Shown: positions 1-37,407 of the stretch, piece by piece
How the letters are laid out: each line of letters starts with the position of its first letter
How positions within the stretch are numbered: position 1 is the stretch's first letter
Assembly: GCA_043730305.1 (NCBI GenBank)
Contig: JAYTKL010000400.1
Location: 1-37,407 of the forward strand
Direction of reading: 5' to 3'
From: Deinococcales bacterium
Lineage (GTDB): Bacteria > Deinococcota > Deinococci > Deinococcales > JAAFIG01
DNA: 37,407 bases
The notes under the pieces: generated by a model
Seen by the model: the letters and a program-made list of their open reading frames with translations, nothing else
What the model was told of the DNA's origin: nothing
The model's database searches: none
Made by a program: the position numbers and the translations under genes

Positions 1-366
1 CTTTTCAGCATTCGGATACTCCTCGTCGGATAAGTGTTTCAAGAATCCTGCGAAATCCAAACTCGTGCGCCGATCCGTAATCTTCACGCTTCGTTTGCCT
101 GCCAGTGGTTCGAGCGCCATGAAGATGTTCGCACTGCCTTCACGTTGGTACTCGTAATCCTCGCGTTCAACCTGACCTGGTTGAGCGGGGATACTGCCTC
201 TGGGTGTGCTTCGCAGTTCCTTTTTCCCTTCATCTACGCACACCACAGGTTTTCTCGCATCGAAGGGGCGTGCGTACACCTCGAGTACATCCTCCATTTT
301 GGCTACGAAATTCGCGCTCGCTTTGGGGATGCAGTACCGTTTGATTCTCCACGGTTTGATCTCGTT
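1..366 (-). CDS. IS630-family transposase, DDE catalytic part (-1 frame relative to OrfA), truncated by the window edge
   Basis: My translation of the minus strand from 366 gives NEIKPWRIKRYCIPKASANFVAKMEDVLEVYARPFDARKPVVCVDEGKKEL...YEYQREGSANIFMALEPLAGKRSVKITDRRTSLDFAGFLKHLSDEEYPNAEK. It is open to position 1 and joins OrfA as ...RLKK|NEIKPW by a -1 shift. Confidence 0.8.
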
Positions 367-797
367 TTTTTCAGACGATCCCCCAGCGTGCTACGCCCCA
401 CACTAGGCAACCAACCTTCAGCGATCACATGCTTTTTCAACAGTGAAAGCGTCCAACGAGCCGCGCCTTTAGGAGGTTCACTACAGGCGAGCAGTGCGAT
501 CTTAGCTTCGATTTCACCAGTGATTTTTGGGATTGCCCCAGGACGTGGTTTCTCCTCGAGAGCCTCTGTTAAACCTTGGTTGGCATAACGGTTGCAGATT
601 CGGGAGACTGTCGGGATGCTGGTTTGGCTGAGTTGCGCGATGTTGGCTCGAGTGTGTTTTTGACCTTGGCTTTGGTCGGCGAGGAGCAGGATTTTAGCTC
701 GGGTGATGACCCTGGCTTTGTTGCTGCCGCTTCGACTCAGTTTTTCGAGATGTTGGCGGTGATCGATGGGGAGGTTGATTCTGGCGGGTTTGCTCAT
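303..797 (-). CDS. IS630-family transposase, N-terminal HTH/winged-helix part (OrfA frame)
   Basis: 164-aa ORF. The strings KARVITRAKILLLADQ...IAQLSQTSIPTVSRICNRYANQG...EEKPRPG...KIALLACSEPP...RWTLSLL are typical of the IS630 N-terminal DNA-binding region. This frame ends 20 codons after an A7 run. Confidence 0.85.
   Translation of the reverse strand: MSKPARINLPIDHRQHLEKLSRSGSNKARVITRAKILLLADQSQGQKHTRANIAQLSQTSIPTVSRICNRYANQGLTEALEEKPRPGAIPKITGEIEAKIALLACSEPPKGAARWTLSLLKKHVIAEGWLPSVGRSTLGDRLKKTRSNRGESNGTASPKRARIS
365..371 (-). other. A7 slippery run (T7 on the plus strand): candidate -1 programmed frameshift site, or a 1-nt indel
   Basis: Minus strand reads cgt ctg aaa aaa acg. Re-reading one A gives aac gag atc aaa ccg tgg, which continues the transposase frame. 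Confidence 0.6.
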
Positions 798-810
798 GCT
801 TTAAAGCTTA

Positions 811-2352
811 TCAAATCCAACTGGATACAGCACTAAGTTCATTGCCATCGGCTGTAACAATCCGTACCTCTGCGAACGAATCTCGAGTTGTGTCTAGAAC
901 CAAGTTAGATAAACTCACCCGAATCGGTTGGTCTATCGATAAAGAGTTCAAAGAGCTGCGTGGGATTTGAACAGCAACCGAACTACCACTTACCGTTTCG
1001 TGATCTTCTGGTGCTGCAAACAAAGGCGTACTGAATTTGGCTAGGGAAACGGAGGCATTTTGATTCAGTGCCCCGCTGTCGGCATTGAGTTGCACACTGT
1101 TGTCCCCAGTCGTCACTGAGCCACTTCCACCAACATTCAGTATGGCAACTCCCACACTTGCAGGGGCTTGCAAACTCAATCCCAAAGTGCTGCTTTTGCT
1201 AGAATCATCGCGCAGAATGGCTGTGATAACCACGCTGGCTGTTGTCGCCACATCTGGTGCACAAAACGTTACCGTTGTTCCTGTCTGATTGCTCAATGCC
1301 CCCTGTCCTGTCATGCTCCAAATCACACCACTCCCTAGACTCCCGCCGTCGCTCGAGGCTGCCGTTAACGTGGTGCATTGGTTCGCTGGAATTACTCCTA
1401 TCGGGCTGTCAATCCTGAATGCCAGCGTCTGTGATGGAATGTAATACTGCGGGGCGCTGCTGACTCGAGCATTCGTCAAGCGCAGGTTCGTCACCCCAGG
1501 CACAGTGTCTGTATCCGCTCCGATCAACACCGCTTCGGTGGCGTTCACCGCTTGCGCTCGAGCCGTGACTTGCGCCGTAGTTTCTTCTATACTGCGCGTC
1601 ACGCGAATGTTGGGTTCGTCCACCAGCAAGTAGGTCATTTGGAAACGGTATGGATTCTCGAGCGCATTGGTTGGTTTGGGCATCCGCAATGCCAATGTCA
1701 CTTGACCCGTGCCACTGGGGGCGATGGCTCGTCCACCCGTATTGTTGCGTGCCACAAAACCGTATTCGAGCACGTCATCGAGTTGTTGCAGCAAGCCAGC
1801 TTGTTTGGCAGAATCCTCGACGGCTTGCGTTTCCAGATCGCTAAACGCTTGAAAATCCGCCTTGCTCGGGTCAACCTCGAGCGTCGTGCCGTTGACTTTG
1901 ATGCCGTGCATCGGGCGCACACTCTGGGCTATTGCGGGGTTGGTGATCGCTTGCCCATTCAGGTTCTCGAGGCTCAGGAAGGGGGTCAGTCCCAGTCCTT
2001 TACCGGCGAAGTTGACGCCGATCAGGTTGAGGTTGCTGATTGCGTTGGTGCTGGTGTTGGCAACCTCGAAGGTCGCCCAGGCGTACCTAGAGTTTGTGCC
2101 GTCGTCGTCAAAAGCCCCCGTGAATTTTCGGACGAAGTTGATGCTGACGTTAAAATCACGACCTTGCCGACTCGAGGTGGGTTTGAACGGTGTGACGGTG
2201 GCTTTCGCGGAGTTCCCATCGAATTGCACCGTGACCGTGCCAAGCAATTTGCCTTTAAAGTTTTCTGGTCTGGGTGTTGGTGCTTGCCCACAGGCACTGA
2301 GCAATCCGAGAAGGGCAACGGCAGTGGTGGTGGCGATGCGCTGTGCGTTCAT
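811..2352 (-). CDS. Secreted lipoprotein of unknown function with Ig-like repeats; paralogue of the N-terminal part of 24395..28090; 3' end abuts the IS630 element
   Basis: The internal ATG at 2352 is preceded by AAGGAG. The N-terminus MNAQRIATTTAVALLGLLSAC has a lipobox. About 270 aa align by eye with 24395..28090 (VTRS.EETTAQ, LIG.DTDTV, VDP..AD.QA, F.V.RN..GGR..AP..TG.VT.A). The 127-codon upstream extension of the ORF has no RBS and was rejected. Confidence 0.75.
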   Translation of the reverse strand: MNAQRIATTTAVALLGLLSACGQAPTPRPENFKGKLLGTVTVQFDGNSAKATVTPFKPTSSRQGRDFNVSINFVRKFTGAFDDDGTNSRYAWATFEVANTSTNAISNLNLIGVNFAGKGLGLTPFLSLENLNGQAITNPAIAQSVRPMHGIKVNGTTLEVDPSKADFQAFSDLETQAVEDSAKQAGLLQQLDDVLEYGFVARNNTGGRAIAPSGTGQVTLALRMPKPTNALENPYRFQMTYLLVDEPNIRVTRSIEETTAQVTARAQAVNATEAVLIGADTDTVPGVTNLRLTNARVSSAPQYYIPSQTLAFRIDSPIGVIPANQCTTLTAASSDGGSLGSGVIWSMTGQGALSNQTGTTVTFCAPDVATTASVVITAILRDDSSKSSTLGLSLQAPASVGVAILNVGGSGSVTTGDNSVQLNADSGALNQNASVSLAKFSTPLFAAPEDHETVSGSSVAVQIPRSSLNSLSIDQPIRVSLSNLVLDTTRDSFAEVRIVTADGNELSAVSSWI

Positions 2353-2683
2353 GGGAACTCCTTTGGTAGGCGCTCGAGGCGCGAGTATTGCGTTGGTCAG
2401 AGGGTGTCGGGTTGGTTCAGGTTGCCGAATGGTGGGGAAATACCGCAGGTGGTTGTGATGTAGTTGTGAATCTCGAGTTTTGGGGTTTGATATTGTTGAA
2501 AAGGCATGTCTGCTATCGGTAGATTTGGGGCTATTCTGTTGTGGTCTTGTACGTTTTTTAGATCGCCTGTTTGGATCAGCGACAATTGGGTATCCATAAC
2601 ATCCCCCATCATTCTCATTGGTACAATGATGTCTGAGATTAGCAGATTTTTTCGGAGTAAACCTTAACTTGATACGATTGCAC

Positions 2684-4282
2684 TCAGCTTTGTTGCCAAA
2701 TGGCTTCAGGGTCAAGCCAGAATTCGTACCCATCTGACCGAATACTTTCTGGATACTCGAGCGTCTGCCGCAACTTTGCGATGACTTTGGACATCAACTC
2801 CCCAAATGAAGATTCGACGTTGAGGATTTTTTCTTCAACCAAAATGGCGTATGCTAATTCGTTGGCGGTCACCCGTGTGTTTTGGGCATTCAGAAGATAT
2901 TGCAAGGCTTTAATTTGTTGTGAATCACCAACTTTGGCAAGCTGTCGCCCGTTGATAAAAATCTGTGGTTTTGGGTGTTTCACAAAACGAATCACGAATT
3001 GTTCAGGATAAGACAAAACTTGAACGCGCAAGCCTTTTTGACCCAACAAAATAAACAGCGCTGGGAATTGTGCCGCCTCTTCCCGAACCACCCGAGTCTC
3101 GAGTGGCAACTCAAGCAGCTTTTCTAGTGCTTGCGTCTCGAGCTTTTCTTGTCGAATCAGTTCGGCTTCAAGAATTGATTTCAAATGCACATCCGCCCCA
3201 AAGACCCGTGTCACCTGATTGAGTGAGTGTGTTGCCTGTTTGTTTTGCTCGAGTTTCAGATACGCAGCAGCCAACTCAAGCCAGAAATCACTGGGGTTGT
3301 TCGGGTTTTTCTTTAGGGTTTCCTCGAGCAGTTGTTTCGCTTCCAGAGAACGCCCAGCCAAGCGATGGGTTCGTGCCAAGTTCAACAAAATTTGGTATTG
3401 CTCGAGCGAATCATTGATTTCGATGGCGGCTTTTTGTGCTCGCCTGTAAAACTCGAGCGCAATGTACCACTCGCCTTGAAATCGTCTGAATGCGGCAACA
3501 CCCGCCAAGGCTTTGGCTCTGAGCGGTTTGCCTTCGGATTTGAAGGTTTCAGCAAGGGATTGTAAAAAGTAGTGCTCTGCCAGTGGGTCACATTCGCGCA
3601 ACAGGTTTAAACCGATTTGGTAGTTGATCCAAGCTGTGTGATACGTATCTTCTTTAAGGTATGCCAGTGCCTCGAGCGCCAGGTCTTTGGCTTTTTGGGT
3701 GCGATGCTCGGAATACAAGCAAGTTGTGGCATTGAGGAGCGCCAATCCCAAAGGGTGTCCTTGCAAATGTGATTGAGCCTCGAGCAAGTGATGCTCCCAA
3801 GGTTCGTGTAAACGATGTGAAGCCCAGAGCAAACGTTGATGTGCCAAACCAAGCCAGTAGCCGTTCAATTTTGGCAGGACAGCATACAGAGAAGCTTTTG
3901 TCTCGAGATACCGCCCAGCGCAAATCAGCACAAAACCTTCTAACACCTGCAATTCAGGCTCGAGTTCTCCAGATTGTTCGAGACAACTTTTTAACCATCG
4001 CTCGAGTTCAATTTCGTCCTGACACCCCGCGAGAATACGCCCGATCAGAATGCGCCACGGGGTTTGCTCGAGAAACGCAATCGGTTCAACAGTAAATACT
4101 TTGCCGCCCTGTTGTTGGGGTTGCTCCCAGATTTGCCGCAACACCCGCCAATCTCGAGCTTGACGGATGTTGTCGGCAGCGCTTTGCAGCACGTTAAGGG
4201 CTTCGGGAAGGTGGTTTCGGTCTAGCATGTACCGCACCGCATCACGAATTTTGCTGGGATGGGCGCGGCTCATGCTCGGCAT
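2684..4282 (-). CDS. TPR-repeat regulator with a C-terminal OmpR/PhoB-type winged-helix DNA-binding domain
   Basis: 532 aa. The helical-repeat body carries TPR-like strings (YHTAWINYQIGLNLL, WYIALEFYRRAQKAA, LELAAAYLKLEQN). The C-terminus INGRQL...IKALQYLLNAQNTRVTANELAYAI...VIAKLRQTL...IRSDGYEFWL fits the Trans_reg_C pattern. Confidence 0.6.
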   Translation of the reverse strand: MPSMSRAHPSKIRDAVRYMLDRNHLPEALNVLQSAADNIRQARDWRVLRQIWEQPQQQGGKVFTVEPIAFLEQTPWRILIGRILAGCQDEIELERWLKSCLEQSGELEPELQVLEGFVLICAGRYLETKASLYAVLPKLNGYWLGLAHQRLLWASHRLHEPWEHHLLEAQSHLQGHPLGLALLNATTCLYSEHRTQKAKDLALEALAYLKEDTYHTAWINYQIGLNLLRECDPLAEHYFLQSLAETFKSEGKPLRAKALAGVAAFRRFQGEWYIALEFYRRAQKAAIEINDSLEQYQILLNLARTHRLAGRSLEAKQLLEETLKKNPNNPSDFWLELAAAYLKLEQNKQATHSLNQVTRVFGADVHLKSILEAELIRQEKLETQALEKLLELPLETRVVREEAAQFPALFILLGQKGLRVQVLSYPEQFVIRFVKHPKPQIFINGRQLAKVGDSQQIKALQYLLNAQNTRVTANELAYAILVEEKILNVESSFGELMSKVIAKLRQTLEYPESIRSDGYEFWLDPEAIWQQS

Positions 4283-4300
4283 CCTAGCAGAGGGTTTGGT

Positions 4301-4477
4301 TTAACCCCCAGTCGGTTTGGTGCCACTGCCGCCGTCATCCGCGAGCAGGTTGGGCGGACTATACGTTGGTTTGCTCGAGGCGCTCTGATTGGAAACCGAT
4401 TGGGTGTTGGTCAAGCCGAGCCATGCCAGCATGAGTGCCGCAATGACCCGACCCAGCCGCTGTGCGGTGGGCTTCAT
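4301..4477 (-). CDS. Small secreted peptide precursor (58 aa), hypothetical
   Basis: Absent from the ORF track (under 60 aa). ATG at 4477 is preceded by GGAGAG. My translation is MKPTAQRLGRVIAALMLAWLGLTNTQSVSNQSASSKPTYSPPNLLADDGGSGTKPTGG, a Sec-type signal followed by a polar Pro/Gly/Ser tail. Its stop lies 18 nt before the start of the TPR regulator. Confidence 0.4.
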   Translation of the reverse strand: MKPTAQRLGRVIAALMLAWLGLTNTQSVSNQSASSKPTYSPPNLLADDGGSGTKPTGG

Positions 4478-4650
4478 GTCTCTCTCCTTCGACTCGAGAT
4501 TTAGAACCTCGAGTGCAGTGACAAGCGACCCGCGCCAGGTCAGTTGTCAGTGCTACAGGTACGCGGTTTTCGCGTGGCATGCCTGCCTGTAACGAAAGAG
4601 AGCTTAGGGGAATTCCCCAAACGGATCATCGGTAAAATTACGGGGTCACT

Positions 4651-7176
4651 CTAAATGAATGGTTCGATCAAGCCAAATTCTTGGGCTTTCAAAACCAATT
4701 CGGTGCGATTGTCAGGATTAAAAATGCTAAAAAGATCACTCATATGATCATTTACTGTTCTTGGAGCAATACCAAGTTCTTTGGCAATTCGTTTGTCTGA
4801 AAAACCTCGAGCGACCAAACGAAGTACATCCAGTTGTCGAGCAGTAACAATTGGAATGTTTGATGGTGAATTTGAAGCCAGTTGTCTTGCAATTGAAAGC
4901 AAGAATCTTCGTTGCGTATCCGGATTACTGTTAAAAACACCACTGCCCCGCAACTTTTTTGGCGATCTTGTCTCTGCAAGAATCTTGTCACATTCGGCTT
5001 GAAAAGAATTTAATTCTTCCTGGTAACGAACCAACCCAGTAGCTTTCACGCTGACAATTGTTTTGTACCACCCAATCAATTGAAGCCCAAGCAATGCGCT
5101 TTGGACACTTGAGGACTTTGTCAGGCAATCAAGCAAGAAAGCGAATACTTCGCGAATACGATCAGGGCTGCCGTAAGCCACGGCAGAATTTATGGCTTGA
5201 ACCCACATCTCGATAGCAACCTTGACTTGCCCCATTTGGGCATAAGCAACGCCTGTGCCAACAATTGCCTTATTATGCTCCTCAGAGTTTAGTATTGGTT
5301 CCGTTTTTAACAATCCAGCGTAGTGTAACAAGGCTTCTCGAGGGTTATCGGTCTCTAAACAAATATTGCCTAACGCCAATTGTGACAGGCGTTGACCTTC
5401 AACATCTCCCAAATGTTGAAATAAAGAAAACGCTTCGGAAACCAAAGGCATTGCTCGGGATGTTTGTTGCTCTAATACCAACGCAACTCCAAAATTTAAC
5501 GCCGCAAATGCAATTTCAAATGGTTTGTCTTGTTGACGCAAAATGATTAGCCTTTGCTCAAAGAGTTCCAGGGCACGATCCACTTGCCCAGTTGAATAGA
5601 GGGCAATTGCCAGAGAGTTAAGCGCAACACTCAGACCATATTCATTGTTTGATTGCCGTTCAAGCTGAAAGCATTCTTCAAGTAAGGGAATTGCTTCTGC
5701 GTGACGGTTATTATCGTTTAGGAGCGCTGCTAAGTTTTGCAACCCAAGCGCCAGATGTTCACTTGAGTTTTGCCTTGCAAGCGCAATGGTATCAACAAAG
5801 CGTTGTATTGATCGATCTTCCAAACCAAGTTCATGTTCACTTTCTGCCAAGTAGAACTGCGCCAAAATCCAATCGCTTACTTTGTTTAAAGAAGGAAATT
5901 TTTCTAGCATTGTCAGCCAAAATGCTGCTTCACGATAGTTTGCTTCAACCATCCAAAATAAGTACATCAATCGAACCAGTGTAAGTGCTAAACGAACCAA
6001 CAAAGTCTGTTGACCTCTAAGTTTTTTGATTCGTTCAAGTGCGAAATTGGCTTCTGGAAGTAAAGCTCTGACCGCTTCAACAGCGTGCGGTTCCACAGAA
6101 ATCAAAGCCTCCTGGACTTGAGACAAGCGATGGACCACCCACTGCGTGTGTCTTCGCTCAAAAGCATGAACTTCTGCCGACGATAACAATCCTCGCATCG
6201 TGCTTTGAATGGGCACATGCCAAGCAAAACGAGGTTCCGAGGTTAGGTTGGCTGATCGCAATTGAAGTAAATTTTTAGAAACCAAACTGAGTAAACAACG
6301 TGCCACGGTTGATGCGACCCAGGATTTTCCTAGCACCCATCGACAGTCTTCAAGAGAGAATTCAATGTTGAACATCGTGGCATGTTCGAGTACCTCGAGT
6401 TCATCGTCTTCAAGCAACTTACAACTCCAAGCCAAAGCGCTTAGATAATCCACGTGTAAAGCCTCACTCTTGCTGCGATGTCGAAGCTCTGCCGTAGCAC
6501 CCAAATCTACGAGGTGAGCGATGGTTTCAAGACCTGCTTGACCCGCATGACCTGCCAGCAATTCGATCAGCAACGGGATTCCAGCAGAGAAGTTGAGAAG
6601 CCGTTCGAGGAAGGGATTATTGAAATCCAAATCATGTCTTTCAATCCAGTAGGAAACCATTGCCGTTGCGGAGGCGTGAGAAGTAGTTTGGCGATCATGA
6701 ATATCAAAAGGTTGCAAAAGATGCTTGATTTCGCCACCGATCTCGAGTGGTTCACGGCTGGTCACAAGAACGTGCAACTTGGCAAATTGAAATTTGGTCA
6801 AAAAAGATCGAACCTCTGCCCGAATGTGTTCGGCATTGTCCAAAGCGAGGACATAACCATCCAAAGCTTCAGCCAGCCTCACAAGCTCTAAGTCTTCTTC
6901 TAAAACAATTTTGAAGGGAGCAGCAACTTGCTCGAGGAGCTGCAATTCGGAGAAACAACCACGCAAATCAACCAGCAAATACGGCGAAGATTTTTGCGAA
7001 AGCCATTCGTCTAGCAAGCGAGTTTTCCCAACACCGGGTACACCCGTTATTGTAAATAATCCTGACGAATTCTCTTGGTACCATCGATCAAGCATTTTGA
7101 AATCATCTTGACGACCAACAAACGGAGTTCGCCGATGGTGACTTGACAACTGAGTTACAGAACTACGGTCTGTCAC
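4651..7176 (-). CDS. STAND-type ATPase + TPR regulator with a C-terminal LuxR/GerE HTH (MalT-like architecture)
   Basis: 841 aa. The N-terminal P-loop is FTITGVPGVGKTRLL with Walker-B-like YVLALDNAEH. The middle is TPR-like and helical. The C-terminus TARQLDVLRLVARGFSDKRIAKELGIAPRTVNDHMSDLF is a LuxR-type HTH. The DNA is AT-richer and poorer in CTCGAG than its neighbours. Confidence 0.8.
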   Translation of the reverse strand: MTDRSSVTQLSSHHRRTPFVGRQDDFKMLDRWYQENSSGLFTITGVPGVGKTRLLDEWLSQKSSPYLLVDLRGCFSELQLLEQVAAPFKIVLEEDLELVRLAEALDGYVLALDNAEHIRAEVRSFLTKFQFAKLHVLVTSREPLEIGGEIKHLLQPFDIHDRQTTSHASATAMVSYWIERHDLDFNNPFLERLLNFSAGIPLLIELLAGHAGQAGLETIAHLVDLGATAELRHRSKSEALHVDYLSALAWSCKLLEDDELEVLEHATMFNIEFSLEDCRWVLGKSWVASTVARCLLSLVSKNLLQLRSANLTSEPRFAWHVPIQSTMRGLLSSAEVHAFERRHTQWVVHRLSQVQEALISVEPHAVEAVRALLPEANFALERIKKLRGQQTLLVRLALTLVRLMYLFWMVEANYREAAFWLTMLEKFPSLNKVSDWILAQFYLAESEHELGLEDRSIQRFVDTIALARQNSSEHLALGLQNLAALLNDNNRHAEAIPLLEECFQLERQSNNEYGLSVALNSLAIALYSTGQVDRALELFEQRLIILRQQDKPFEIAFAALNFGVALVLEQQTSRAMPLVSEAFSLFQHLGDVEGQRLSQLALGNICLETDNPREALLHYAGLLKTEPILNSEEHNKAIVGTGVAYAQMGQVKVAIEMWVQAINSAVAYGSPDRIREVFAFLLDCLTKSSSVQSALLGLQLIGWYKTIVSVKATGLVRYQEELNSFQAECDKILAETRSPKKLRGSGVFNSNPDTQRRFLLSIARQLASNSPSNIPIVTARQLDVLRLVARGFSDKRIAKELGIAPRTVNDHMSDLFSIFNPDNRTELVLKAQEFGLIEPFI

Positions 7177-7330
7177 AATGTGTCATTTTACGAGTAATTC
7201 TGGGTCAGGTGGACCAAATCTCGTCCAGTTCATAACAGCTTATCCAACTACATTATCCGATACCTGCCCTAGGTGTATAAATCCAAAAACGTTTTTCGGC
7301 ACGATATTCGACACCCTCTCAAGTAAGCCA

Positions 7331-15662: not shown

Positions 15663-15685
15663 ACTGCCTCCTGAACCACCTGGTC

Positions 15686-28410: not shown

Positions 28411-28431
28411 GAAGACAGCAAATCTGTCTTC
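28411..28431 (-). terminator. Hairpin GAAGACAG-CAAAT-CTGTCTTC downstream of the LysR gene
   Basis: The 8-bp stem lies 18 nt after the LysR stop on the minus strand. It is followed by AAGGTTCATTCTTTTCGATTTTTC, which is T-rich but not an immediate T run. Confidence 0.35.
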
Positions 28432-28448
28432 AATCTCTCGAGCCACTT

Positions 28449-29345: not shown

Positions 29346-29478
29346 GGTTTCATCATTAAACACCAACTTTGAAACTTCTATCGAATTCTTGCATACATGC
29401 TGCCTTCCACCGCCCGAAAATCAATTGTTGTTATTGACACTCGAGCCTAAACTTTATTCAAGAAAGCGAGGCAGGAAA

Positions 29479-29703
29479 ATGATCGCAATACAAAACGTCT
29501 ATCTCGAGGTGGTTGGTGAGGCAAACGAGGCAGCCTTCAAAAATGTTTTTGGAAACCTTGAAGCTCGAGTTTTACCCTATGCCAGACTTGGAGATTTTAC
29601 CTTGCAGGTTTCGATTTGTGCCGATGCCATCAAGCAACTGGTATTTAAAGATGTGAAAATGCAACTCGAGAAACTTGGCTTTACGGTGCTCGGGGCGCAT
29701 TAG
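29479..29703 (+). CDS. Small hypothetical protein (74 aa)
   Basis: ATG at 29479 is preceded by GAGGCAGG. The protein begins MIAIQNVYLEVVGEANEAAFKNVFGNLEARVL.... I recognise no motif. The longer ORF from 29320 overlaps the LysR start and was not used. Confidence 0.4.
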   Translation: MIAIQNVYLEVVGEANEAAFKNVFGNLEARVLPYARLGDFTLQVSICADAIKQLVFKDVKMQLEKLGFTVLGAH

Positions 29704-29748
29704 CCTAAAAATTCATCTGTTCTCAGTTTTGGCACGTACACTGTTTCA

Positions 29749-30138
29749 GTGAAGTTCCGCCGCCGTCATTTGCGTCAACTCGAGCGTTTTACTCGCGCTC
29801 GAGTTGTGCCTTTGATGTTGGCGGTGCTTGTTGCATGGTTGGGCACAAATGCGTTTCTCGAGTCGGCTGCAATGCAAGTCATGCACCATCACACATGCGT
29901 TGAACTCTTAACAAAAGCAGACTCAAAAAACTCGAGCGAGACAAATCAATTCCATGAACACTGCCAGTTTTGTTTTGCACCTGCGCTAGCTTCTGGCGTT
30001 CCAAATAAGTTCCGCATCTCGCGTTTGACAGTCACTGAAATCCTGAAACTCGAGCCTCGTTTTCAGGTTGTTTTCAATCGTTTCGACCATGAGCTTGCCG
30101 CTCCTCGAGCGCCACCAGTTCAAACTTTTTCGGTTTGA
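29749..30138 (+). CDS. Membrane-anchored His/Cys-rich protein, DUF2946-like (putative metal handling)
   Basis: It has one predicted TM segment (VVPLMLAVLVAWLGTNAFL). It then carries MHHHTC and HEHCQFCF, the H...C..C signature I associate with DUF2946 proteins found next to copper genes. It starts at a GTG. Confidence 0.4.
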   Translation: MKFRRRHLRQLERFTRARVVPLMLAVLVAWLGTNAFLESAAMQVMHHHTCVELLTKADSKNSSETNQFHEHCQFCFAPALASGVPNKFRISRLTVTEILKLEPRFQVVFNRFDHELAAPRAPPVQTFSV

Positions 30139-30194
30139 AATTTGGTTTTTGGCGTTCTGTCTCGAGTGTTACTCGAGGTCTTTTGAGGAGTGTT

Positions 30195-30635
30195 ATGAAA
30201 AAAAGTGTTTTGATGATCCTGAGTATCAGCTTGGTTTTTGTTGGTATTGCATTCGCGCATTCCAAAGTTAAAAAATCCACTCCCAAAGAAGGCGAGATTG
30301 TGAAAATCATGCCCAAAACCGTCAAGCTCGAGTTTAATGAGGGGCTGGTGACCCAATTCAGCACGTTTAAAGTCTACAAAATGACCACAAAATCTAAAGA
30401 CAGTGAAAAACTCGAGGCTGAAGCTGAGGCGCTGGCTTCAAGACTGACCATGAAAAAAGGTGATGAAAACGCTCGAGCCGACACTGGTTTTAAAGGCGCG
30501 GCGGCAGAAACCACCAAAGTCACGGTGAGCCTGAAAACAGGCTTAAAACCTGGCGTTTACGTGGTGATGTGGCGCTTGCTCGGCACGGACACGCACGCGG
30601 TTTCGGACAATTTGTGGTTTCAATATAAACCCTGA
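30195..30635 (+). CDS. copC: CopC-family periplasmic copper-binding protein
   Basis: ATG at 30195 is preceded by GAGGAG. The signal peptide MKKSVLMILSISLVFVGIAFA is followed by a mature N-terminus HSKVKKSTPKEGE (N-terminal His, S.P..G pattern). The C-terminus is GVYVVMWRLLGTDTHAVSD. Confidence 0.75.
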   Translation: MKKSVLMILSISLVFVGIAFAHSKVKKSTPKEGEIVKIMPKTVKLEFNEGLVTQFSTFKVYKMTTKSKDSEKLEAEAEALASRLTMKKGDENARADTGFKGAAAETTKVTVSLKTGLKPGVYVVMWRLLGTDTHAVSDNLWFQYKP

Positions 30636-30666
30636 GACATTTCTGAAACTTTAACCTTATGCTGAA

Positions 30667-31881
30667 TTGGACACGATGAACAACGATTATCTGCCACTGG
30701 TCTTCCGCCTCGCCTTTTTTGTCGGGGCGGTCTGTCTGATTGGCTCAAGCAGCTATCAACGTTATCTCTCCCCTGCTGCGCCCTCGAGATTGATGCGCAT
30801 TGTGCATCATGCTGGTGCGGTGTTGCTGATTGCCGCCAGTTTGCTCGAAGTTGGCGTGACTGCTTACAGGGCGCTATTGGAGTTAAATCCGTATTTGTAC
30901 GGCGCGTACATGACCACCTCGAGACACGGACGGGCAACCTTGGCGCGGGTGGCGATGGCGGCGGCGTTGTGGTGGGTGGGTTTGGTCGCGCAAAAAGAAT
31001 GGTTTGAATTTGGCAAGTTGAACGGCAAGTTGCTCGATCAAATTGCTCATGGTTTGTTGTGTGTCGCAATTTTGGTCACGATCAGTTTCACCTCTCATGC
31101 GGGCGCTCGAGCCGAGGTGCTGCCGATTTTTGCCGATGTGATTCATTTGGCTGCCATGACCGCCTGGGTCAGTGCGGTGGCGTTCACCGCTTTTAACTTG
31201 CTTCCCAAAGCGCCACAAGACACCCTGACTTTACTCGAGCGCGTCTCGAGCGTTGGGCTTGGCACGGTGATTGCGCTGACCTTGACTGGGCTTTACACGG
31301 GTTTGATTCGTTTGTGGGACCCAGAATTGCTGGTCGAAACCCAGTACGGGCAGGCGTTGGTGTTCAAACTGGCAGTGGTTGCCGTGATCGTTGCTTTGGC
31401 GGCAATCAACCGTTTTGTCATGATGCCTCAAATGAAAGCCAAGCCTAATAATTCTAACTTCACAAGATTCTGGGGCATTTTAAGGCTCGAGACGGCATTG
31501 CTGGGATTTGTCATGCTTGCCTCGAGCAATTTGTCCACGATTTCACCACCCGAACGCGGCGTGCAACTTGCCGCAACCCAAAGTTTTAATCAACGCATTG
31601 CACCTTGGACACTGAAAGGCACCGCCACACCAACCGTCATTGGCGGGGTCAAGCTCGAGTTTGAAATCCTTGGCGATAAGGGTTTTCAACTTTCACCAGA
31701 TGCCAGAATTGATGCCTCGCTCGAGTCCACCAGCCACACCATGACCCCAGATGTCATGAAGGTTGAGCGATCAAGCGACGGGGAATACCATACAAAAGGC
31801 ATTTTTGGCATGACTGGGACGCATTTGGTGATTCTCAAATGGTCCGGAGCTAAAGCCGAAATCAGACTCGAAGCAAAATAA
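30667..31881 (+). CDS. copD: CopD-family copper-resistance membrane protein with a C-terminal soluble beta-rich domain (YtkA/FixH-like)
   Basis: It has about 8 hydrophobic segments and lies immediately downstream of copC. The last ~110 aa are hydrophilic. The start may be the ATG at 30676 instead of the TTG at 30667. Confidence 0.7.
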   Translation: MDTMNNDYLPLVFRLAFFVGAVCLIGSSSYQRYLSPAAPSRLMRIVHHAGAVLLIAASLLEVGVTAYRALLELNPYLYGAYMTTSRHGRATLARVAMAAALWWVGLVAQKEWFEFGKLNGKLLDQIAHGLLCVAILVTISFTSHAGARAEVLPIFADVIHLAAMTAWVSAVAFTAFNLLPKAPQDTLTLLERVSSVGLGTVIALTLTGLYTGLIRLWDPELLVETQYGQALVFKLAVVAVIVALAAINRFVMMPQMKAKPNNSNFTRFWGILRLETALLGFVMLASSNLSTISPPERGVQLAATQSFNQRIAPWTLKGTATPTVIGGVKLEFEILGDKGFQLSPDARIDASLESTSHTMTPDVMKVERSSDGEYHTKGIFGMTGTHLVILKWSGAKAEIRLEAK

Positions 31882-31903
31882 ACTCGAGCCAACAGGAGTT
31901 TTT

Positions 31904-32710
31904 ATGCGTGTACACCCATTTGTTTTTCTTTGTGCGATTGCTGCTTTCAGTGTTTTGATTGCCACACCTGTCTCGGGGCAGCAGGGCGTCAATTTGACTG
32001 TCTTTGCCACCTCGAGTTTGACCGATTCTTTTAGCGAAATCGGCAAGGCGTTCGATATCAAAACGGGCAGCAAAACCAACTTTCAATTTGCAGGGTCGCA
32101 GATCTTGCGCACCCAACTCGAGAATGGCGCGAAAGCCGACGTGTATGCCAGCGCCAACAGCGCCCAGTTTGATCCGCTCATCAAAGCTGGTTTGATCGCT
32201 GGCGGTGTCGCTTTTACCAAAAACCGTTTGGTGGTGATCGTGCCAAAAAAGGGCAAGGGGAATGTCAAAACGCTGTCTGACCTTGCCAAACCTGGCGTCA
32301 AGCTGGTGATTGCCGACAAAACAGTTCCTGTTGGAGCGTACAGCCGTCAAATCCTCGAGACCCTTGGAAAATCAGATCAATTTGGTGCAGATTACACCGC
32401 TCGAGTTCTCAAAAACGTCGTCTCCGAAGAAACCAACGTCCGTCAGGTGGCGTTAAAAGTTCAATTGGGCGAGGCAGATGCGGGCATGGTCTACACCACC
32501 GATGTCACCCCAAACCTCGCCCCCAACGTGATTCAAATTGCCATACCGACACGGTACAACGTGATCGCCAAATATTTGATTGGCGTCTTGAAAAACTCGA
32601 GCAACCCAGACGCTGCGAGAGCATTCACCGATTTTGTGCTCTCAAAAGACGGGCAAAAGATTCTGGGCAAATGGGGGTTTTTGTCGATCAGCAAAAGCAA
32701 ACTCCCCTAA
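31904..32710 (+). CDS. modA: Molybdate ABC transporter substrate-binding protein
   Basis: AGGAG precedes the ATG and there is a signal peptide. LTVFATSSLTDSFSEIGKAF...FQFAGSQILRTQLENGAKADVYASAN...VPVGAYSRQIL...EADAGMVYTTD matches the ModA pattern. Confidence 0.8.
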   Translation: MRVHPFVFLCAIAAFSVLIATPVSGQQGVNLTVFATSSLTDSFSEIGKAFDIKTGSKTNFQFAGSQILRTQLENGAKADVYASANSAQFDPLIKAGLIAGGVAFTKNRLVVIVPKKGKGNVKTLSDLAKPGVKLVIADKTVPVGAYSRQILETLGKSDQFGADYTARVLKNVVSEETNVRQVALKVQLGEADAGMVYTTDVTPNLAPNVIQIAIPTRYNVIAKYLIGVLKNSSNPDAARAFTDFVLSKDGQKILGKWGFLSISKSKLP

Positions 32711-32774
32711 ATCCCGCAATTGCTTTCAGACCTCGCGCTTGAAGCTCGGGCAATCAATGGCATGATAAGAGCGC

Positions 32775-33584
32775 GTGAGTTCCAAGAAGCCAAAACCATC
32801 CGTCTCCAATCCGCTGCCAGTGCTGCCCATCGTGGCAAGCCTGGTGCTGATCGCTTTCTTGTTGTTACCAACCTTGGTGGTGCTCGAGCGCGGCGTGGGT
32901 GCGGGGTTTGCTGGGGCGTGGCTGAATCCAGTCGTGCTCGAGGCGTTGCGCGTCAGTTTGGTGACGACGGCTATCACGTTGAGTTTGACCGTGGTGTTTG
33001 GTACGCCGGTGGCGTATTTGCTGGCACGTTACCGCTTTGTTGGTCACACCCTGCTCGATACGCTGCTTGACCTGCCAATCGTCTTGCCGCCCGTGGTGGC
33101 TGGCGTGGGTTTGCTGCTGACCTTTGGGCGTCAAGGTTTACTGGGTGCACCACTCGAGATGGCAGGCATCTCGTTGGCGTTCAGCCCTGCCGCCGTGGTC
33201 ATGGCACAACTTTTTGCCAGCGCACCATTCTTTATTCGGGCGGCGAAGGCTGGGTTTATGGCGGTAGACCGTGACATTGAAGACGCGGCACGCATCGACG
33301 GCGCTTCCAACCTTCAAGTTTTTAGGTTTATCACCTGGAAGCTGTCTTTTGCCTTTTTGCTCGAGGGTCTGGTGCTGACCTGGGCAAGGGCTTTGGGCGA
33401 GTTTGGCGCGACCATCTTGTTTGCAGGATCACTCATCGGCAGCACCCGCACGATCACCCTTTCGATTTATGCGGCACTCGAGAGTGATTTGAATCCCGCC
33501 CTGGTCTTGTCGGCGGTGATGGTCTTTGTGGCTTTTGGCTTGTTGTTTGTGGTGCGGGTGCTGACCAAAAATCGCAACCTTTAA
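32775..33584 (+). CDS. modB: Molybdate ABC transporter permease
   Basis: It has multiple TM segments. LLTFGRQGLLG and the EAA-loop-like IEDAARIDGASNLQVFRFITWKL are typical of ModB/CysT-type permeases. No ATPase gene follows. Confidence 0.8.
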   Translation: MSSKKPKPSVSNPLPVLPIVASLVLIAFLLLPTLVVLERGVGAGFAGAWLNPVVLEALRVSLVTTAITLSLTVVFGTPVAYLLARYRFVGHTLLDTLLDLPIVLPPVVAGVGLLLTFGRQGLLGAPLEMAGISLAFSPAAVVMAQLFASAPFFIRAAKAGFMAVDRDIEDAARIDGASNLQVFRFITWKLSFAFLLEGLVLTWARALGEFGATILFAGSLIGSTRTITLSIYAALESDLNPALVLSAVMVFVAFGLLFVVRVLTKNRNL

Positions 33585-33593
33585 ACGCTTGAA

Positions 33594-33646
33594 GCGGTAA
33601 CTCATCACGCTCGAGGCAGTAACCCATCACGCTCGAGGCAGTAATC
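33594..33646. repeat. 2.4 copies of a 22-bp tandem repeat (GCRGTAACYCATCACGCTCGAG)
   Basis: The copies are 33594..33615, 33616..33637 and a partial copy at 33638..33646. They lie in the gap between the convergent modB and 33648..34022 genes, and each full copy carries a CTCGAG. Confidence 0.8.
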
Positions 33647-33647
33647 T

Positions 33648-34022
33648 TTAGGCTTGAGCTTCGGGTTGTTCGGTTTCGCTGGTGTTATCGGCAGCAAAAT
33701 CATTGGCGACAATTTCATCATTGCCGACCAGCACAGGCAATTCGGTTGGTGCGGGTTGCAAGAGTTGCGCCAGCACGCTTTCACGGTCACGAATGGTCGC
33801 ATGAACCCGCTCGAGTTCGCGCACGATTGGCTCCAGGGCGCTCGAGTCGTTGCGTCCAAAATAGTAACTGCGCCCAAGGCGTGCAAACAGCACGTCGCGT
33901 TCGCGGTTGAGGTTGAGAATATCAAGCCGTACACGGGCAACTCGAGCACCCAATTCGCCTTTTTCTTTGGCAAATTCGTAGCCTTTGGATAAATTCTTTT
34001 TGAGGTTGTCTAACAGTCCCAT
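33648..34022 (-). CDS. Hypothetical coiled-coil protein with an acidic tail
   Basis: 124 aa. GAGGAG precedes the ATG. It begins MGLLDNLKKNLSKGYEFAKEKGELGARVARVRLDILNLNRERDVLFARLG.... I recognise no family. Confidence 0.5.
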   Translation of the reverse strand: MGLLDNLKKNLSKGYEFAKEKGELGARVARVRLDILNLNRERDVLFARLGRSYYFGRNDSSALEPIVRELERVHATIRDRESVLAQLLQPAPTELPVLVGNDEIVANDFAADNTSETEQPEAQA

Positions 34023-34122
34023 TTGGGTTTCTCCTCGGGAATTGATTGAGTCTCAGAAATTCCCATCACTATGGTACGCGGTAGTGACTTACAAAAAACT
34101 AACAAACCGTTTGGCTCGAATT

Positions 34123-35292
34123 CTATACTTTTAAAGCGATCACAGGCACGAGCATTTCGGCACTCGACCAGCCGCCGTGCGCCCCGAGCAAGGTCGAGGC
34201 GGTCTTGCGACCGCCAAACGTCCAATTAAATTGAATGCCGTCGTGTGCCACAGCGATCAGATCACCAATTCGAGATCGAAACGTCTCGAGTTCGGGCTTT
34301 CCACCAAACAAACCCGTGTCCCAGGCATCCTGGCTACGCATGGTTTGCGCGTACGGTTTTAAATATTCCTCGAGTTCTTCGATCATCCCGTCCTGCACCC
34401 GAAAATACCTCGAGAGTCGCTCACCTGCGGGCGCACCGCGCAACGTGCTGCGCAGAATTTTGTCACGCTCGAGATGCACCACTTTTTTCGGGTCAAGGTC
34501 GCGCTGCCCATGATCGGCGGTCAAGATAAACAGTGTTTTGCCGTCTCTGGGAAGCGTTTTTAAGAGTCTTGCCACGCACAAATCGAGAGCCGCCACCTCG
34601 TCGCTGGCGTGTTTGCTGCCAGGTCCGTGCTTGTGACAGACCGTGTCGTAATCGGGGTAATAGGCGCAAATGTACTGCGGCGCGTCCAGTTTCGGGTAAC
34701 TCGAGATAAGGCTTGGAATCGTGTTCGGGCTGAAATAACCACCCTGAAACGCGCCCTGCCAGTACCAGTCGTTCAAAAATGATCCCTTGTAAGCCCCTGG
34801 TTGCGCGGCAAAACATTGCACGCCCAGCTTCTCGAGCCGTGCGGTCAGGCTGATATGGCTTTTTAAGAATTCAGGGTTTTCAAGTTGGGTGCTGGTCTCG
34901 AGGTTTGCCAGGGCAATCATGTCAGTTACGGCGTTCACTTCCTCGAGCCAGAGCGTGTACCCGAGCCAACCGGTTTTGGCGGGCGGTGCCGCCATGTGAA
35001 TGCTGGTCACGGCGCTCATGGTGGTGCTGGGAAAAACACTGGTGATGGTGGTTGACACGGTATCTTGCCCAAGTAAAGTTTTGAGGTTTGGCGCGTCGCC
35101 GTCCGCCATGTGCCGCTCGAGTTGCCCCTGTCCCAAACCGTCGGCGATGAACAGCACCACGCGTTCCATGCCTTCAAAGGGCAGTGAATGTTTTAACGGC
35201 GCATAACCCGTCTTCAAACCGAAATGCGCGGCAATGCTCGATGACAGATTAAGGATACTGCCGTCGTTGTAATCTGGAAGAACTTTGGTCAA
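34123..35292 (-). CDS. Alkaline-phosphatase-superfamily protein (type I phosphodiesterase / nucleotide pyrophosphatase-like)
   Basis: 389 aa. VVLFIADGLGQGQL, VFPSTTMSAVTS, FILTADHGQ and LGAHGGWSSAEMLVP fit the metal-ligand and nucleophile blocks of the AP/NPP family. It starts at a TTG with GAAAGG upstream. Confidence 0.65.
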   Translation of the reverse strand: MTKVLPDYNDGSILNLSSSIAAHFGLKTGYAPLKHSLPFEGMERVVLFIADGLGQGQLERHMADGDAPNLKTLLGQDTVSTTITSVFPSTTMSAVTSIHMAAPPAKTGWLGYTLWLEEVNAVTDMIALANLETSTQLENPEFLKSHISLTARLEKLGVQCFAAQPGAYKGSFLNDWYWQGAFQGGYFSPNTIPSLISSYPKLDAPQYICAYYPDYDTVCHKHGPGSKHASDEVAALDLCVARLLKTLPRDGKTLFILTADHGQRDLDPKKVVHLERDKILRSTLRGAPAGERLSRYFRVQDGMIEELEEYLKPYAQTMRSQDAWDTGLFGGKPELETFRSRIGDLIAVAHDGIQFNWTFGGRKTASTLLGAHGGWSSAEMLVPVIALKV

Positions 35293-35349
35293 AAAAACCT
35301 TTCAAAAATCAATTGCAAAAGTGTACCCCAGTCTCTGGAATTTAGAGTC

Positions 35350-36192
35350 ATGAGGGTTAAAACCGCCTTGTACAACACCACAAAACGTCTCGTGGCGGTT
35401 GGCGTTCCCAGTCCAGATTCCGACGCCAGTTGGTTGCTCGAGGTGGTCATGAATGCCAGTTATTCGGATTTGTTCTTGATGTCGGAACAAGTTTTAACTC
35501 CAATTCAACTCGAGCAACTTGAAGGCTTTGTGATACGGCGTGAGGCTCGAGAACCTTTGCAATGGATCATTGGTTTCACCGAATTTTATGGTTTGAAAAT
35601 CGAGACTCGAGTTGGTGTGTTGATTCCGCGTCCAGAGACCGAAAGATTGGTTGAATTGGTGCTCGAGGATTTGCCAAACGCACCCGCCAAGGTGGTGGAC
35701 ATTGGCACTGGAACGGGCGCGATTGCCCTGGCGCTGAAAGCCGAACGTCCAAAACTCGAGATTCTGGCAACCGACATCAACGTAAAAGCGCTCGAATTGA
35801 CCCGCAAAAACGCTTTAACTTTAAAACTGAAACTTGAAACCGTTCAAACCTCGATTTTGGACGGAATTGATCGAATGTTCGACGCGATTGTTTCCAACCC
35901 ACCGTACTTGCCAGCCAGCGACGATGGCAAGCTGGATATCGAAGTGCAACTCGAGCCTTCAGAAGCTCTGTTTGGCGGCACTGACGGTTTGAGTCTGGCT
36001 CGGATGATCGTGAATGCGGCTCGAGAAACACTGAACGACGGTGGTTTATTGGCGCTCGAACTCGACCCGCGAAATGCCGCGACACTGGCAAGAGAACTCG
36101 AGCTTTCAATCTGGCAAGACGTGAGGCTCGAGGCTGATTTGGTCGGACGTGAACGGTTTGTGCTGGCACGCCGTAAGCTAAGGCATGAGTGA
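35350..36192 (+). CDS. prmC: Peptide chain release factor N5-glutamine methyltransferase
   Basis: REPLQWIIGFTEFYGLKIETRVGVLIPRPETE is present. The SAM-binding block is VVDIGTGTGAIALAL and the catalytic motif is VSNPPYLP. It overlaps ruvX by 8 nt. Confidence 0.85.
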   Translation: MRVKTALYNTTKRLVAVGVPSPDSDASWLLEVVMNASYSDLFLMSEQVLTPIQLEQLEGFVIRREAREPLQWIIGFTEFYGLKIETRVGVLIPRPETERLVELVLEDLPNAPAKVVDIGTGTGAIALALKAERPKLEILATDINVKALELTRKNALTLKLKLETVQTSILDGIDRMFDAIVSNPPYLPASDDGKLDIEVQLEPSEALFGGTDGLSLARMIVNAARETLNDGGLLALELDPRNAATLARELELSIWQDVRLEADLVGRERFVLARRKLRHE

Positions 36193-36631
36193 TTTACTTC
36201 CCGCAATTGCCTTAGACGTTGGGACTGCCCGAATTGGCTTCGCCGCCAGCGACACCCAGGGGCGTTTCGCCTTCCCCAAGGGCTACCATACCTGCGTCTC
36301 GCTCGAGCAAGATGTCCAGGCAATCAAAGATTTTATGAACGCCGAAAACGCTAAAGCGGTGATTGTGGGCTTGCCACTGCGCACCGACGGCGCAGATTCG
36401 CCGCAAACCCTGAAAGTCCGCAGTTTTGCGGCTTCGCTCCAGGCTGCGGGTTTAAACGTGATCCTGCAAGACGAACGCTTCTCGACCCGTATCGCCACAC
36501 AATCCTTATTGGCAGGCAGCAGCCGCAAAAAACGCCAGGAAAAAGGACGCACCGATGAAGCCAGCGCGATCAGCATTTTGGAAACCTGGCTCGAGAAACA
36601 ACGCATCAAAAGTGCTTTACAAAACCTTTAA
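36185..36631 (+). CDS. ruvX: Putative pre-16S rRNA nuclease / Holliday-junction-resolvase-like protein (YqgF family)
   Basis: ALDVGTARIGFAASD, VIVGLPLRTDG..SPQ, the V.SFA..L pattern, LQDERFST and DEASAISILETWL match the YqgF family pattern. Confidence 0.85.
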   Translation: MSDLLPAIALDVGTARIGFAASDTQGRFAFPKGYHTCVSLEQDVQAIKDFMNAENAKAVIVGLPLRTDGADSPQTLKVRSFAASLQAAGLNVILQDERFSTRIATQSLLAGSSRKKRQEKGRTDEASAISILETWLEKQRIKSALQNL

Positions 36632-36831
36632 GTTGTGATCTTGAATCCAGTGCATTTTGAAGCCCTAACGTAGCGTGACTGAGCATCACAAATCTGGGGC
36701 ATTCAACCCGTGCAAATTCAAAGAAAGCAGTAAAATAACCCATGTCAGAACCTCGAGCTTTCAACCATCAACGTCTTTGCGTTACCTCGCAAGCCGTTTT
36801 CAGTTTCCAAACCGTCAAGTAAGGAGTCCTT

Positions 36832-37407
36832 GTGAAGCGTTTTCCTCCCGTCAACATCTGGTTGATCGTGCTGGCACTGATTATGGTTGGGGTTTTAATT
36901 TCGATCAATGTACCACGCAGCAACGTTGACCCAATCAACTTTTCGGTTTTCATTGATTCGGTCAGCAAAAACGAAGTCAAGAGCGTTCGCATCAACACCG
37001 AGGGCGCAAACGTGATTTTGAACGGCGAAATGCAGGATGGTAAAAAATTCAGCACCGCCACCACCATCACCGACGATTGGAGCAGCCCAAGCTTCTTAAA
37101 AGACAAAGGCATCAAAAGCGTTGATGTGGACAACGGACAAGGCATGAACTGGCTCAATATTGTCTTCAACCTGCTTCCCATTGTGGCAATGGTCGGTCTG
37201 ATGTGGTTTTTGTTGCGCGGAATGCGCGGCGGTCAGGACGGCGCCATGAGTTTTGCCAAATCCAAAGCCAGAATCGTTCCAGAAGGCGCTCCCAAAACCA
37301 CTTTTAAGGACGTGGCGGGTTGCGACGAAGCCAAAGAAGAGCTTTCTGAAATCGTGGATTTTCTGAAGAACCCCGCCCGTTTTCACGACATCGGCGCGAG
37401 AATCCCT
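36832..37407 (+). CDS. ftsH: ATP-dependent zinc metalloprotease FtsH, N-terminal part (open at the right window edge)
   Basis: The GTG at 36832 is preceded by AAGGAG. It has two TM segments. The end ...MSFAKSKARIVPEGAPKTTFKDVAGCDEAKEELSEIVDFLKNPARFHDIGARIP is the conserved entry into the FtsH AAA module. It is absent from the ORF track because it has no stop codon in the window. Confidence 0.9.
   Translation, partial: MKRFPPVNIWLIVLALIMVGVLISINVPRSNVDPINFSVFIDSVSKNEVKSVRINTEGANVILNGEMQDGKKFSTATTITDDWSSPSFLKDKGIKSVDVDNGQGMNWLNIVFNLLPIVAMVGLMWFLLRGMRGGQDGAMSFAKSKARIVPEGAPKTTFKDVAGCDEAKEELSEIVDFLKNPARFHDIGARIP

Follow-up and report, generated by a model that had tools for sequence, protein, structure and literature searches.

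The window analysed here, a stretch of 37,407 bases (positions 1–37407; GC content 50.6%) from an uncultured 'Deinococcales bacterium', contains the palindromic hexamer CTCGAG 202 times. This corresponds to 5.4 sites per kb and agrees with the count of about 200 given in the original prediction, which had been made from the letters of this DNA. CTCGAG is by far the commonest hexamer of the window, and the runners-up are words that overlap it by five of their six letters. Markov models of order 0, 1 and 2 predict 9.3, 7.5 and 16 copies, respectively; models of order 3 and 4 carry no information here, since they rely on sub-words that CTCGAG itself generates. In dinucleotide-preserving shuffles of the window (n = 100) the word occurred 7.7 ± 2.9 times (maximum 16), and 5.1 copies are expected from a background in which the sites are masked. 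The observed-to-expected ratio (O/E) in the window is thus 27 with the dinucleotide model and about 40 with the masked background, and it amounts to 39–64 in relatives of low GC content.

The gene set consisted of 24 open reading frames (ORFs) of the window, most of which have Pfam support. The STAND NTPase/TPR gene at 19378–22338 (plus strand) carries 29 sites (9.8 per kb), 24 of them in the frame CTC-GAG, 4 in xCT-CGA-Gxx and 1 in xxC-TCG-AGx, and CTC-GAG encodes 24 of the 33 Leu-Glu dipeptides in its protein, exactly as had been tallied in the original prediction. Its paralogue at 7331–10297 (minus strand, 41% identity) has 30 sites (10.1 per kb). Both paralogues gave NACHT/NB-ARC-like matches and cluster with further large STAND NTPase and TPR genes at 4651–7176 and 811–4282; this cluster could encode signalling or defence-type proteins. 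Among the highest densities in the window (14.9 sites per kb) is that of the gene at 23746–24081, which encodes an MGMT-type (O6-methylguanine-DNA methyltransferase) DNA-binding domain alone, an alkyltransferase-like protein of 111 aa. The DDE transposase gene (DDE_Tnp_1) at 22542–23558 (plus strand) has 7 sites (6.9 per kb) and is saturated like core genes; no terminal inverted repeats were found around it. A second transposase locus is an IS630-like split pair, composed of an HTH_32 ORF (303–797) and a DDE_3 ORF just left of the window (L325:10501–11121). Just right of the window lies the gene for FtsH, followed by a PIN/DUF6364 toxin-antitoxin-like pair, and an XisH/XisI gene pair together with a HEPN_AbiU2 gene is located about 8 kb past the right end of the window (L001:19836–20566).

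Other genes of the window are poor in sites (0–2.4 per kb). These are the gene at 4651–7176 (minus strand) for a LuxR-type STAND/TPR regulator with a LuxR/GerE HTH (2.0 per kb; GC content at third codon positions 0.38), the Ig/PKD-domain gene at 24395–28090 (plus strand, 1231 aa, 2.4 per kb), the gene at 36768–37181 and the five genes of a block at 10447–19027 (minus strand, 0–1.5 per kb in each gene). Over its length of about 8.7 kb the block as a whole has 11 sites (about 1.3 per kb), whereas the chance rate of the whole window predicts about 2, so that it is still at about five times chance. It includes an ORFan (11954–13786, minus strand), a prokaryotic phospholipase-A2-like gene (13851–14381, minus strand) and a gene for a surface protein of 1113 aa with RCC1-repeat, Calx-beta and InlB-B-repeat domains (15686–19027, minus strand); two proteins of the block, one of them that of 11954–13786, have no Pfam match. 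A search of 5.8 billion proteins returned no sister-species orthologue of either 11954–13786 or 24395–28090. Since the codon usage of the site-poor genes is only slightly atypical, the case for their foreign origin rests mainly on this ORFan status. We infer that the site-poor genes are younger accessory DNA that has yet to gather sites.

The intergenic sites quoted as examples in the original prediction are all real. Three of them (28308, 28328 and 28356) form a cluster at 28300–28362, in which two of the sites belong to a 20-nt tandem duplication, AATCTCGAGATT(T/C)AAAACA. The pair at 33610 and 33632 (33596–33645) lies within a 22-nt tandem duplication, GTAAC(T/C)CATCACGCTCGAGGCA. Because these intergenic sites sit in tandem units, we conclude that some sites multiply by local duplication instead of point mutation.

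An exact hexamer acting at the level of DNA

The density of CTCGAG is similar in coding (5.5 per kb) and intergenic DNA (4.8 per kb) of the window. When synonymous codons were shuffled within each gene, so that the proteins and the codon usage of each gene were kept, 25.2 ± 4.6 sites (maximum 41) were obtained, compared with 177 real sites in genes; permutation of codons gave 12.1. A codon-shuffled null had been named beforehand as one of three tests that could overturn the finding, and it yielded seven times fewer sites than the real genes contain; the other two, a computed count and the reach of the enrichment outside the window, likewise left the finding standing. The excess over the synonymous-codon shuffle was present in all three frames (6–13-fold): 112 sites versus 19.5 expected for CTC-GAG, 40 versus 3.7 for xCT-CGA-Gxx, and 25 versus 1.9 for xxC-TCG-AGx.

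The word also shapes the proteins. Compared with amino-acid shuffles, Leu-Glu is 2.3-fold over-used in the proteins of the window (175 dipeptides versus 74.9 ± 8), whereas Glu-Leu is not in excess (66 versus 73.6 expected), and Leu-Asp, Leu-Lys and Ile-Glu are all at expectation. Leu is most often encoded by TTG (31%), but hardly ever when Glu follows. As Leu-Glu is in excess while Glu-Leu is at expectation, CTCGAG accounts for about 100 of the Leu-Glu dipeptides, in a total of about 10,700 codons. The effect extends to FtsH, which is among the most conserved bacterial proteins. At one position of FtsH, Ala-Arg-Val is encoded through a CTCGAG site in 13 of the 13 copies of the lineage that cover the position, old paralogues included; in ten outgroups the same position is occupied by Gly, Asp, Asn, Lys or Ser. 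At five further sites the lineage has Leu-Glu where outgroups carry Leu-Ala, Leu-Val or Leu-Thr. These lineage-specific replacements, which coincide with CTCGAG sites, bear out the suggestion in the original prediction that the DNA word shapes both codon choice and protein sequence. CTCGAG is an extreme case of a DNA signal that overrides protein sequence and alters residues even in FtsH.

A preference at the level of protein or translation, either for Leu-Glu or for the codon pair CTC-GAG, would fit the 63% of genic sites (112 of 177) that lie in the CTC-GAG frame and the richness of the helical TPR/STAND proteins in Leu and Glu. However, such a preference accounts neither for an intergenic density equal to that in genes, nor for the 11–13-fold enrichment in the other two frames, nor for the normal frequency of Glu-Leu. 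Since intergenic and coding densities are similar, all frames are enriched and only one order of the two residues is in excess, we conclude that the pressure works on DNA and not on proteins or codons.

The unit of this pressure is the exact hexamer. All 16 combinations of flanking bases occur around CTCGAG, the most frequent 10-mer context has only 8 copies, and a k-mer search revealed no hyper-abundant 7–12-mer that does not contain CTCGAG. The nine pairs of words that differ from CTCGAG at one position are together only about 1.3–1.4-fold above the masked background. The pair TTCGAG/CTCGAA is the highest of them, and its reported frequency was true of the window (44 copies versus 17–22 expected, or 2.0–2.6-fold) but weaker in relatives (1.0–1.8-fold). 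With free flanks, no longer word in excess and one-off variants that are barely enriched, the unit is CTCGAG itself. A dispersed repeat element, such as a repetitive extragenic palindrome (REP) or a miniature inverted-repeat transposable element (MITE), was ruled out, as there is no conservation past the core word. An assembly artefact is at odds with the identical sites seen in assemblies that were made independently at ENA, by Logan and in six projects on metagenome-assembled genomes (MAGs). The tests on frames, intergenic DNA, flanks and independent assemblies thus refute protein or codon preference, repeat element and artefact, and we assign this group of explanations practically no probability.

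The sites are spaced somewhat more evenly in core loci than random placement would give. Gaps of at most 30 bp are about half as frequent as in random placement, and in most core loci long gaps are also fewer than random. Six of nine loci have a coefficient of variation of the gaps of about 0.8, each with P ≤ 0.022. The rarity of close pairs, the palindromic nature of the word and the similar densities in coding and non-coding DNA would suit binding sites for an abundant protein that is associated with the nucleoid or organises the chromosome, for which density and spacing, not individual sites, are selected; such sites have been proposed for HIP1, the highly iterated palindrome of cyanobacteria, by Xu et al. 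(PMC5861425). We regard this explanation as improbable: individual sites, and not density alone, are conserved across species, no candidate protein was identified, and the low density in ORFan genes calls for an extra assumption. The high and fairly even density, with few long gaps, would also be compatible with a methyl-directed signal for strand discrimination or nicking in mismatch repair or replication-coupled processes, for which no mismatch may be more than a few hundred bases from a site, and which has been argued for HIP1 (Elhai 2015, PMC4390886). Here, however, the sites are ~150 bp apart and thus far denser than this function requires, no MutH-like or nicking enzyme was identified, and it is left unexplained why exactly one word serves when dozens of palindromes have been purged (see below), so that we consider a strand signal very improbable.

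Distribution and conservation of the sites in the clade

The window corresponds to bases 8,426–45,832 of the 73-kb ENA metagenome contig ERZ27315198 k141_5442838, the flanks of which are as dense as the window (46 CTCGAG in the 8.4 kb to the left, 125 in locus L001). We used FtsH as query against GTDB with one genome per species. Copies with 65–98% identity were found only in MAGs titled 'Deinococcales bacterium', which comprise eight species and include the complete 5.09-Mb chromosome OZ252252.1; the remaining matches had 58% identity or less and came from other phyla. All genomes of the lineage are MAGs, and the label Deinococcales is that of their depositors. CTCGAG is the top hexamer in 16 of 16 loci of the eight related species, at 4.3–7.7 copies per kb and at GC contents of 48 to 62%, and one site occurs every 130–230 bp across the clade, in coding DNA of any frame as well as in non-coding DNA of long residence in the lineage. 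Over 60 unrelated control loci had only 0–2.5 copies per kb and were not enriched. The enrichment thus continues in the rest of the contig and in every related genome sampled. Since the Deinococcus radiodurans megaplasmid MP1 shows no enrichment (8 copies in 50 kb, O/E 0.4) and Thermus thermophilus pTT27 only about a twofold one, in contrast to all the loci of the clade, we conclude that the trait is a property of this uncultured clade and not of the phylum. The density of CTCGAG is a strong marker for binning and host assignment in this clade, and it also flags recently acquired genes.

A scan of metagenomes for the pattern gave matches that were mostly due to chance in short contigs of high GC content. 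A JGI metagenome contig (L317, 13 kb, 58% GC) has 40 CTCGAG (O/E 15) and also an excess of GGATCC (33 versus 7 expected) and GAGCTC (17 versus 2.2 expected); its source may be a different lineage in which more than one palindrome is enriched. Three IMG/VR viral contigs (L186, L172 and L099; 58–70% GC), found in a scan for a three-site pattern, are CTCGAG-rich at 10–16 times the expectation. L186 has 45 copies in 8.2 kb and matches a phage DpdA-like tRNA-guanine transglycosylase gene, and GAGCTC is likewise in excess in L172 and L099. None of the three showed similarity to the loci of the lineage, an informative phage match or a methyltransferase.

Conservation of individual sites was studied in the core block at 28429–37407, a stretch of ~9 kb with 6–12 sites per kb that is syntenic with four sister species at about 83–87% nucleotide identity; the comparison covered four species, those of the window and of loci L005, L008 and L016, at ~85% identity. 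In pairwise comparison with each of the other species, 75–88% of the sites of the window were kept, compared with 43–48% of random hexamer windows, and 30 of 56 sites were kept in all four species, compared with 21% of random hexamers. In a second, independent region of 14 kb, available from two of the same sister genomes, 85% of the sites were kept versus 44%. The synonymous positions behave in the same way: third positions of CTC, GAG, CGA and TCG are conserved to 0.81–0.95 inside sites and to 0.59–0.69 outside them. Sites and synonymous positions of the block are thus conserved above matched controls. The loss of sites was then assessed with a majority-rule ancestor and rates specific to codon position, and these rate analyses are based on 9–14 kb. 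The three sister species lost 22 CTCGAG sites, whereas 51 losses were expected (P = 4e-6), which corresponds to 0.3–0.5 of the neutral rate. We conclude that established sites disappear about half as fast as matched sequence. Some gains took two substitutions on one short branch, namely TTG-GAG to CTC-GAG and ATC-AAG (Ile-Lys) to CTC-GAG (Leu-Glu). Sites arise by point substitution, including substitutions that change amino acids (Leu-Glu; x-Arg-x).

These data also bear on a molecular drive without function, in which a sequence-specific repair or conversion bias writes and restores CTCGAG and the sites themselves do nothing. Candidates for such a bias are a correction of the very-short-patch (VSP) type that is tied to a CTCGAG cytosine methyltransferase, and biased gene conversion. 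A bias alone would suffice for the hyper-abundance, it would place sites anywhere, transposase genes included, and the restoration of mutated sites would also give retention above the baseline; gains by two substitutions can be counted in its favour as well. In E. coli, the Dcm/Vsr system has a roughly 1.3-fold effect, far below the 27–64-fold enrichment found here. The deficit of C-to-T products that VSP repair leaves is absent (CTTGAG/CTCAAG 0.8–1.4-fold, TTCGAG/CTCGAA 1.0–2.6-fold of expectation), so that the signature of Dcm/Vsr-type repair was rejected, and all six positions of the word appear protected, not just a methylated C. Neither a Vsr nor a C5-methyltransferase gene was detected in the sampled DNA of the lineage. 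Although CTCGAA is the commonest decay product, synonymous constraint confounds the deduction of a methylated base from such products. We consider a drive without function unlikely, less so than a nucleoid protein.

To summarize, CTCGAG is a clade-wide 'watermark' of the uncultured 'Deinococcales bacterium' lineage that exists at the level of DNA and is kept by forces that change proteins.

Avoided palindromes and the possible role of CTCGAG

The original prediction had described the abundance of CTCGAG as the opposite of restriction-site avoidance. This was correct and even understated, since the window shows strong avoidance of the majority of other 6-bp palindromes. An O/E below 0.25 was found for 26 of 50 palindromic hexamers, compared with 3.5% of the non-palindromic ones. 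Eleven palindromes, each expected 6–15 times, are absent from the window: AGGCCT, ATGCAT, CCCGGG, CCGCGG, CGATCG, GAGCTC, GCCGGC, GCGCGC, GGATCC, GGGCCC and GTCGAC. Among shorter palindromes, GGCC has 11 copies in the window (O/E 0.08) and only 3 in 133 kb of low-GC relatives, and CCGG has an O/E of 0.2. Avoidance was seen in the window and in ten further loci (L005, L007–L011 and L013–L016), it was far weaker in control DNA, and the set of avoided palindromes varies between species (for example, 0 copies of GCCGGC versus 37 expected in OZ252252). This pattern is the classic footprint of many restriction systems, to which CTCGAG, 27–40-fold over-represented, is the one striking exception.

As to the enzymes that might act on the word, no DNA methyltransferase or restriction gene is present in the window, as had been stated from its letters, and PrmC (35350–36192) is its only gene with a methyltransferase fold. 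The left 8.4 kb of the contig likewise contain no methyltransferase or restriction gene. A motif scan of ORFs of at least 150 aa in about 270 kb of lineage loci, combined with Pfam, revealed only PrmC and an rRNA methyltransferase. We also searched for homologues of M.TaqI, which recognizes the TCGA core, with a query sequence checked against PDB 1AQJ; only TaqI orthologues were returned, and none of these 120 showed the Leu-Glu excess expected of a protein from the clade.

An exact 6-bp palindrome maintained at such stringency would most simply be a word recognized by a dimeric, sequence-specific protein whose gene lies in another part of the genome. This protein would most likely be a solitary CTCGAG methyltransferase, perhaps accompanied by a protein that reads the mark. 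CTCGAG could then serve as a tag for self DNA in DNA exchange, during uptake and/or homologous recombination, and it would have been built up by selection together with a molecular drive biased by uptake or recombination, as for the DNA uptake sequences (DUS) of Neisseria and the uptake signal sequences (USS) of Pasteurellaceae. A tag of this kind is now also the proposed role of HIP1 in cyanobacteria, and for methylated RAATTY in Campylobacter the role has been shown. We favour this role because of the current evidence on HIP1 and RAATTY and because of properties that resemble those of DUS and USS, namely even spacing, scarcity in new DNA, sharing between species and effects on peptides. The overall reading, a HIP1-like recognition word that is probably read or methylated by a dimeric protein and acts as a self-DNA tag, is our preferred one, to which we would give not quite an even chance.

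Several observations weigh against it. In the window's own species, 14 sites of the syntenic block were lost versus 15 expected, which is about neutral, and there were no unique gains. Indeed, this species has 56 sites in the block, compared with 62–75 in its sisters, with 13–14 lineage-specific losses and the highest excess of CTCGAA/TTCGAG; its loss differs from that in the other three species at P about 0.007, on small numbers, and the maintenance of sites may be relaxed in it. Single-step gains were not measurably raised (1 observed versus 0.66 expected), and conservation above the baseline can also stem from a restoring repair bias, not from selection alone. Both transposase loci are site-rich (4–7 sites per kb), unlike what a drive by uptake only predicts. 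Known uptake sequences are asymmetric 9–12-mers, and a hexamer gives low specificity; moreover, a tag role would suppose competence in an uncultured clade. Finally, the roughly 280 kb of lineage DNA sampled yielded neither a methyltransferase nor an endonuclease nor a binding protein for CTCGAG, a weak negative, as this is about 5% of one genome.

A broader version of the self-DNA tag would tie it to the avoided palindromes. Restriction pressure would have driven almost all other palindromes out of the clade, whose DNA would have become saturated with a single hexamer that is read, and probably methylated, in order to accept DNA of its kin, so that CTCGAG would be an independently evolved 'species watermark'. 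This scenario is possible but rather doubtful. In a more radical variant, the word may have been spread by a self-propagating repair or conversion system that writes its own sites. If the species watermark were true, HIP-like words would be a convergent and general solution to self/non-self discrimination in DNA exchange.

Comparison with known iterated words and uptake signals

The mechanism of Dcm/Vsr (CCWGG in E. coli) resembles the present case in that it raises the frequency of the target word of a methyltransferase. VSP repair leaves a deficit of T-containing one-off words and small enrichments, and CTCGAG shows neither.

DUS and USS are asymmetric words with about 1 copy per kb that are recognized by the uptake machinery; they are evenly spread in core genes, shared by relatives, scarce in new DNA, and reshape peptides. 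CTCGAG is likewise a hyper-abundant short word in core genes, present in all frames and fairly evenly spaced; related species have it in common, and DNA of recent acquisition has little of it. It differs in being a symmetric 6-mer with free flanks and 5–8 copies per kb, with no longer word in excess.

A further analogue is the methylated word RAATTY of Campylobacter jejuni, a self-tag without which this bacterium is reported not to take up DNA (cited in PMC10046745). CTCGAG too is a short palindromic hexamer, and it could label self DNA once methylated by a solitary methyltransferase. We know of no enrichment of RAATTY, which is degenerate, unlike the exact CTCGAG.

The closest likeness is to the highly iterated palindromes of cyanobacteria, that is HIP1, GCGATCGC, and the hexamer GGCGCC of Calothrix PCC 7103 (Elhai 2015, PMC4390886; Xu, Lawrence & Durand 2018, PMC5861425). 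Like these, CTCGAG is an exact palindromic word at very high O/E, dense in coding and non-coding DNA whatever the frame, conserved between genomes above control sequence and distributed clade-wide. The name HIP1-like, which the original prediction had given to the word, is thus fair, and conservation above matched controls is the very property that Xu et al. used to argue for selection on HIP1 (PMC5861425). HIP1 genomes and the CTCGAG clade are also alike in being heavily shaped by restriction-modification. HIP1 itself has a density of 300–2,700 per Mb (PMC4390886) and a periodicity of 10–90 kb at chromosome scale (Xu et al. 2018, PMC5861425). Transformation is more than 100-fold higher with methylated HIP1 (10.1101/2024.09.10.611283), and a role as an uptake sequence has been suggested for HIP1 (10.64898/2026.06.24.733823). 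CTCGAG is not HIP1 proper: the word is another one, a hexamer and not an octamer, its records are titled Deinococcales, the phylum is a different one, and CGATCG occurs 0 times in the window versus 8.5 expected. Its density, 4,300–7,700 per Mb, is 2–25 times that of HIP1, and its effect on proteins is visible even in FtsH.

A hyper-abundance of CTCGAG was not reported for any bacterium in the full-text literature that we searched, a coverage that leaves out most subscription journals, and the survey of Elhai 2015 dealt with cyanobacteria only (PMC4390886). CTCGAG looks like a second, independent case of the highly-iterated-palindrome phenomenon, outside cyanobacteria. HIP1 has been unexplained for three decades and, to our knowledge, all examples of its type were cyanobacterial, so that inference on its function was confounded with cyanobacterial biology. 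The second case would be useful for its differences, namely another phylum, a different and shorter word, a several-fold higher density and species of 48 to 62% GC, and the clade permits comparative tests of the genes that co-occur with the word, of its methylation and of its link to competence genes.

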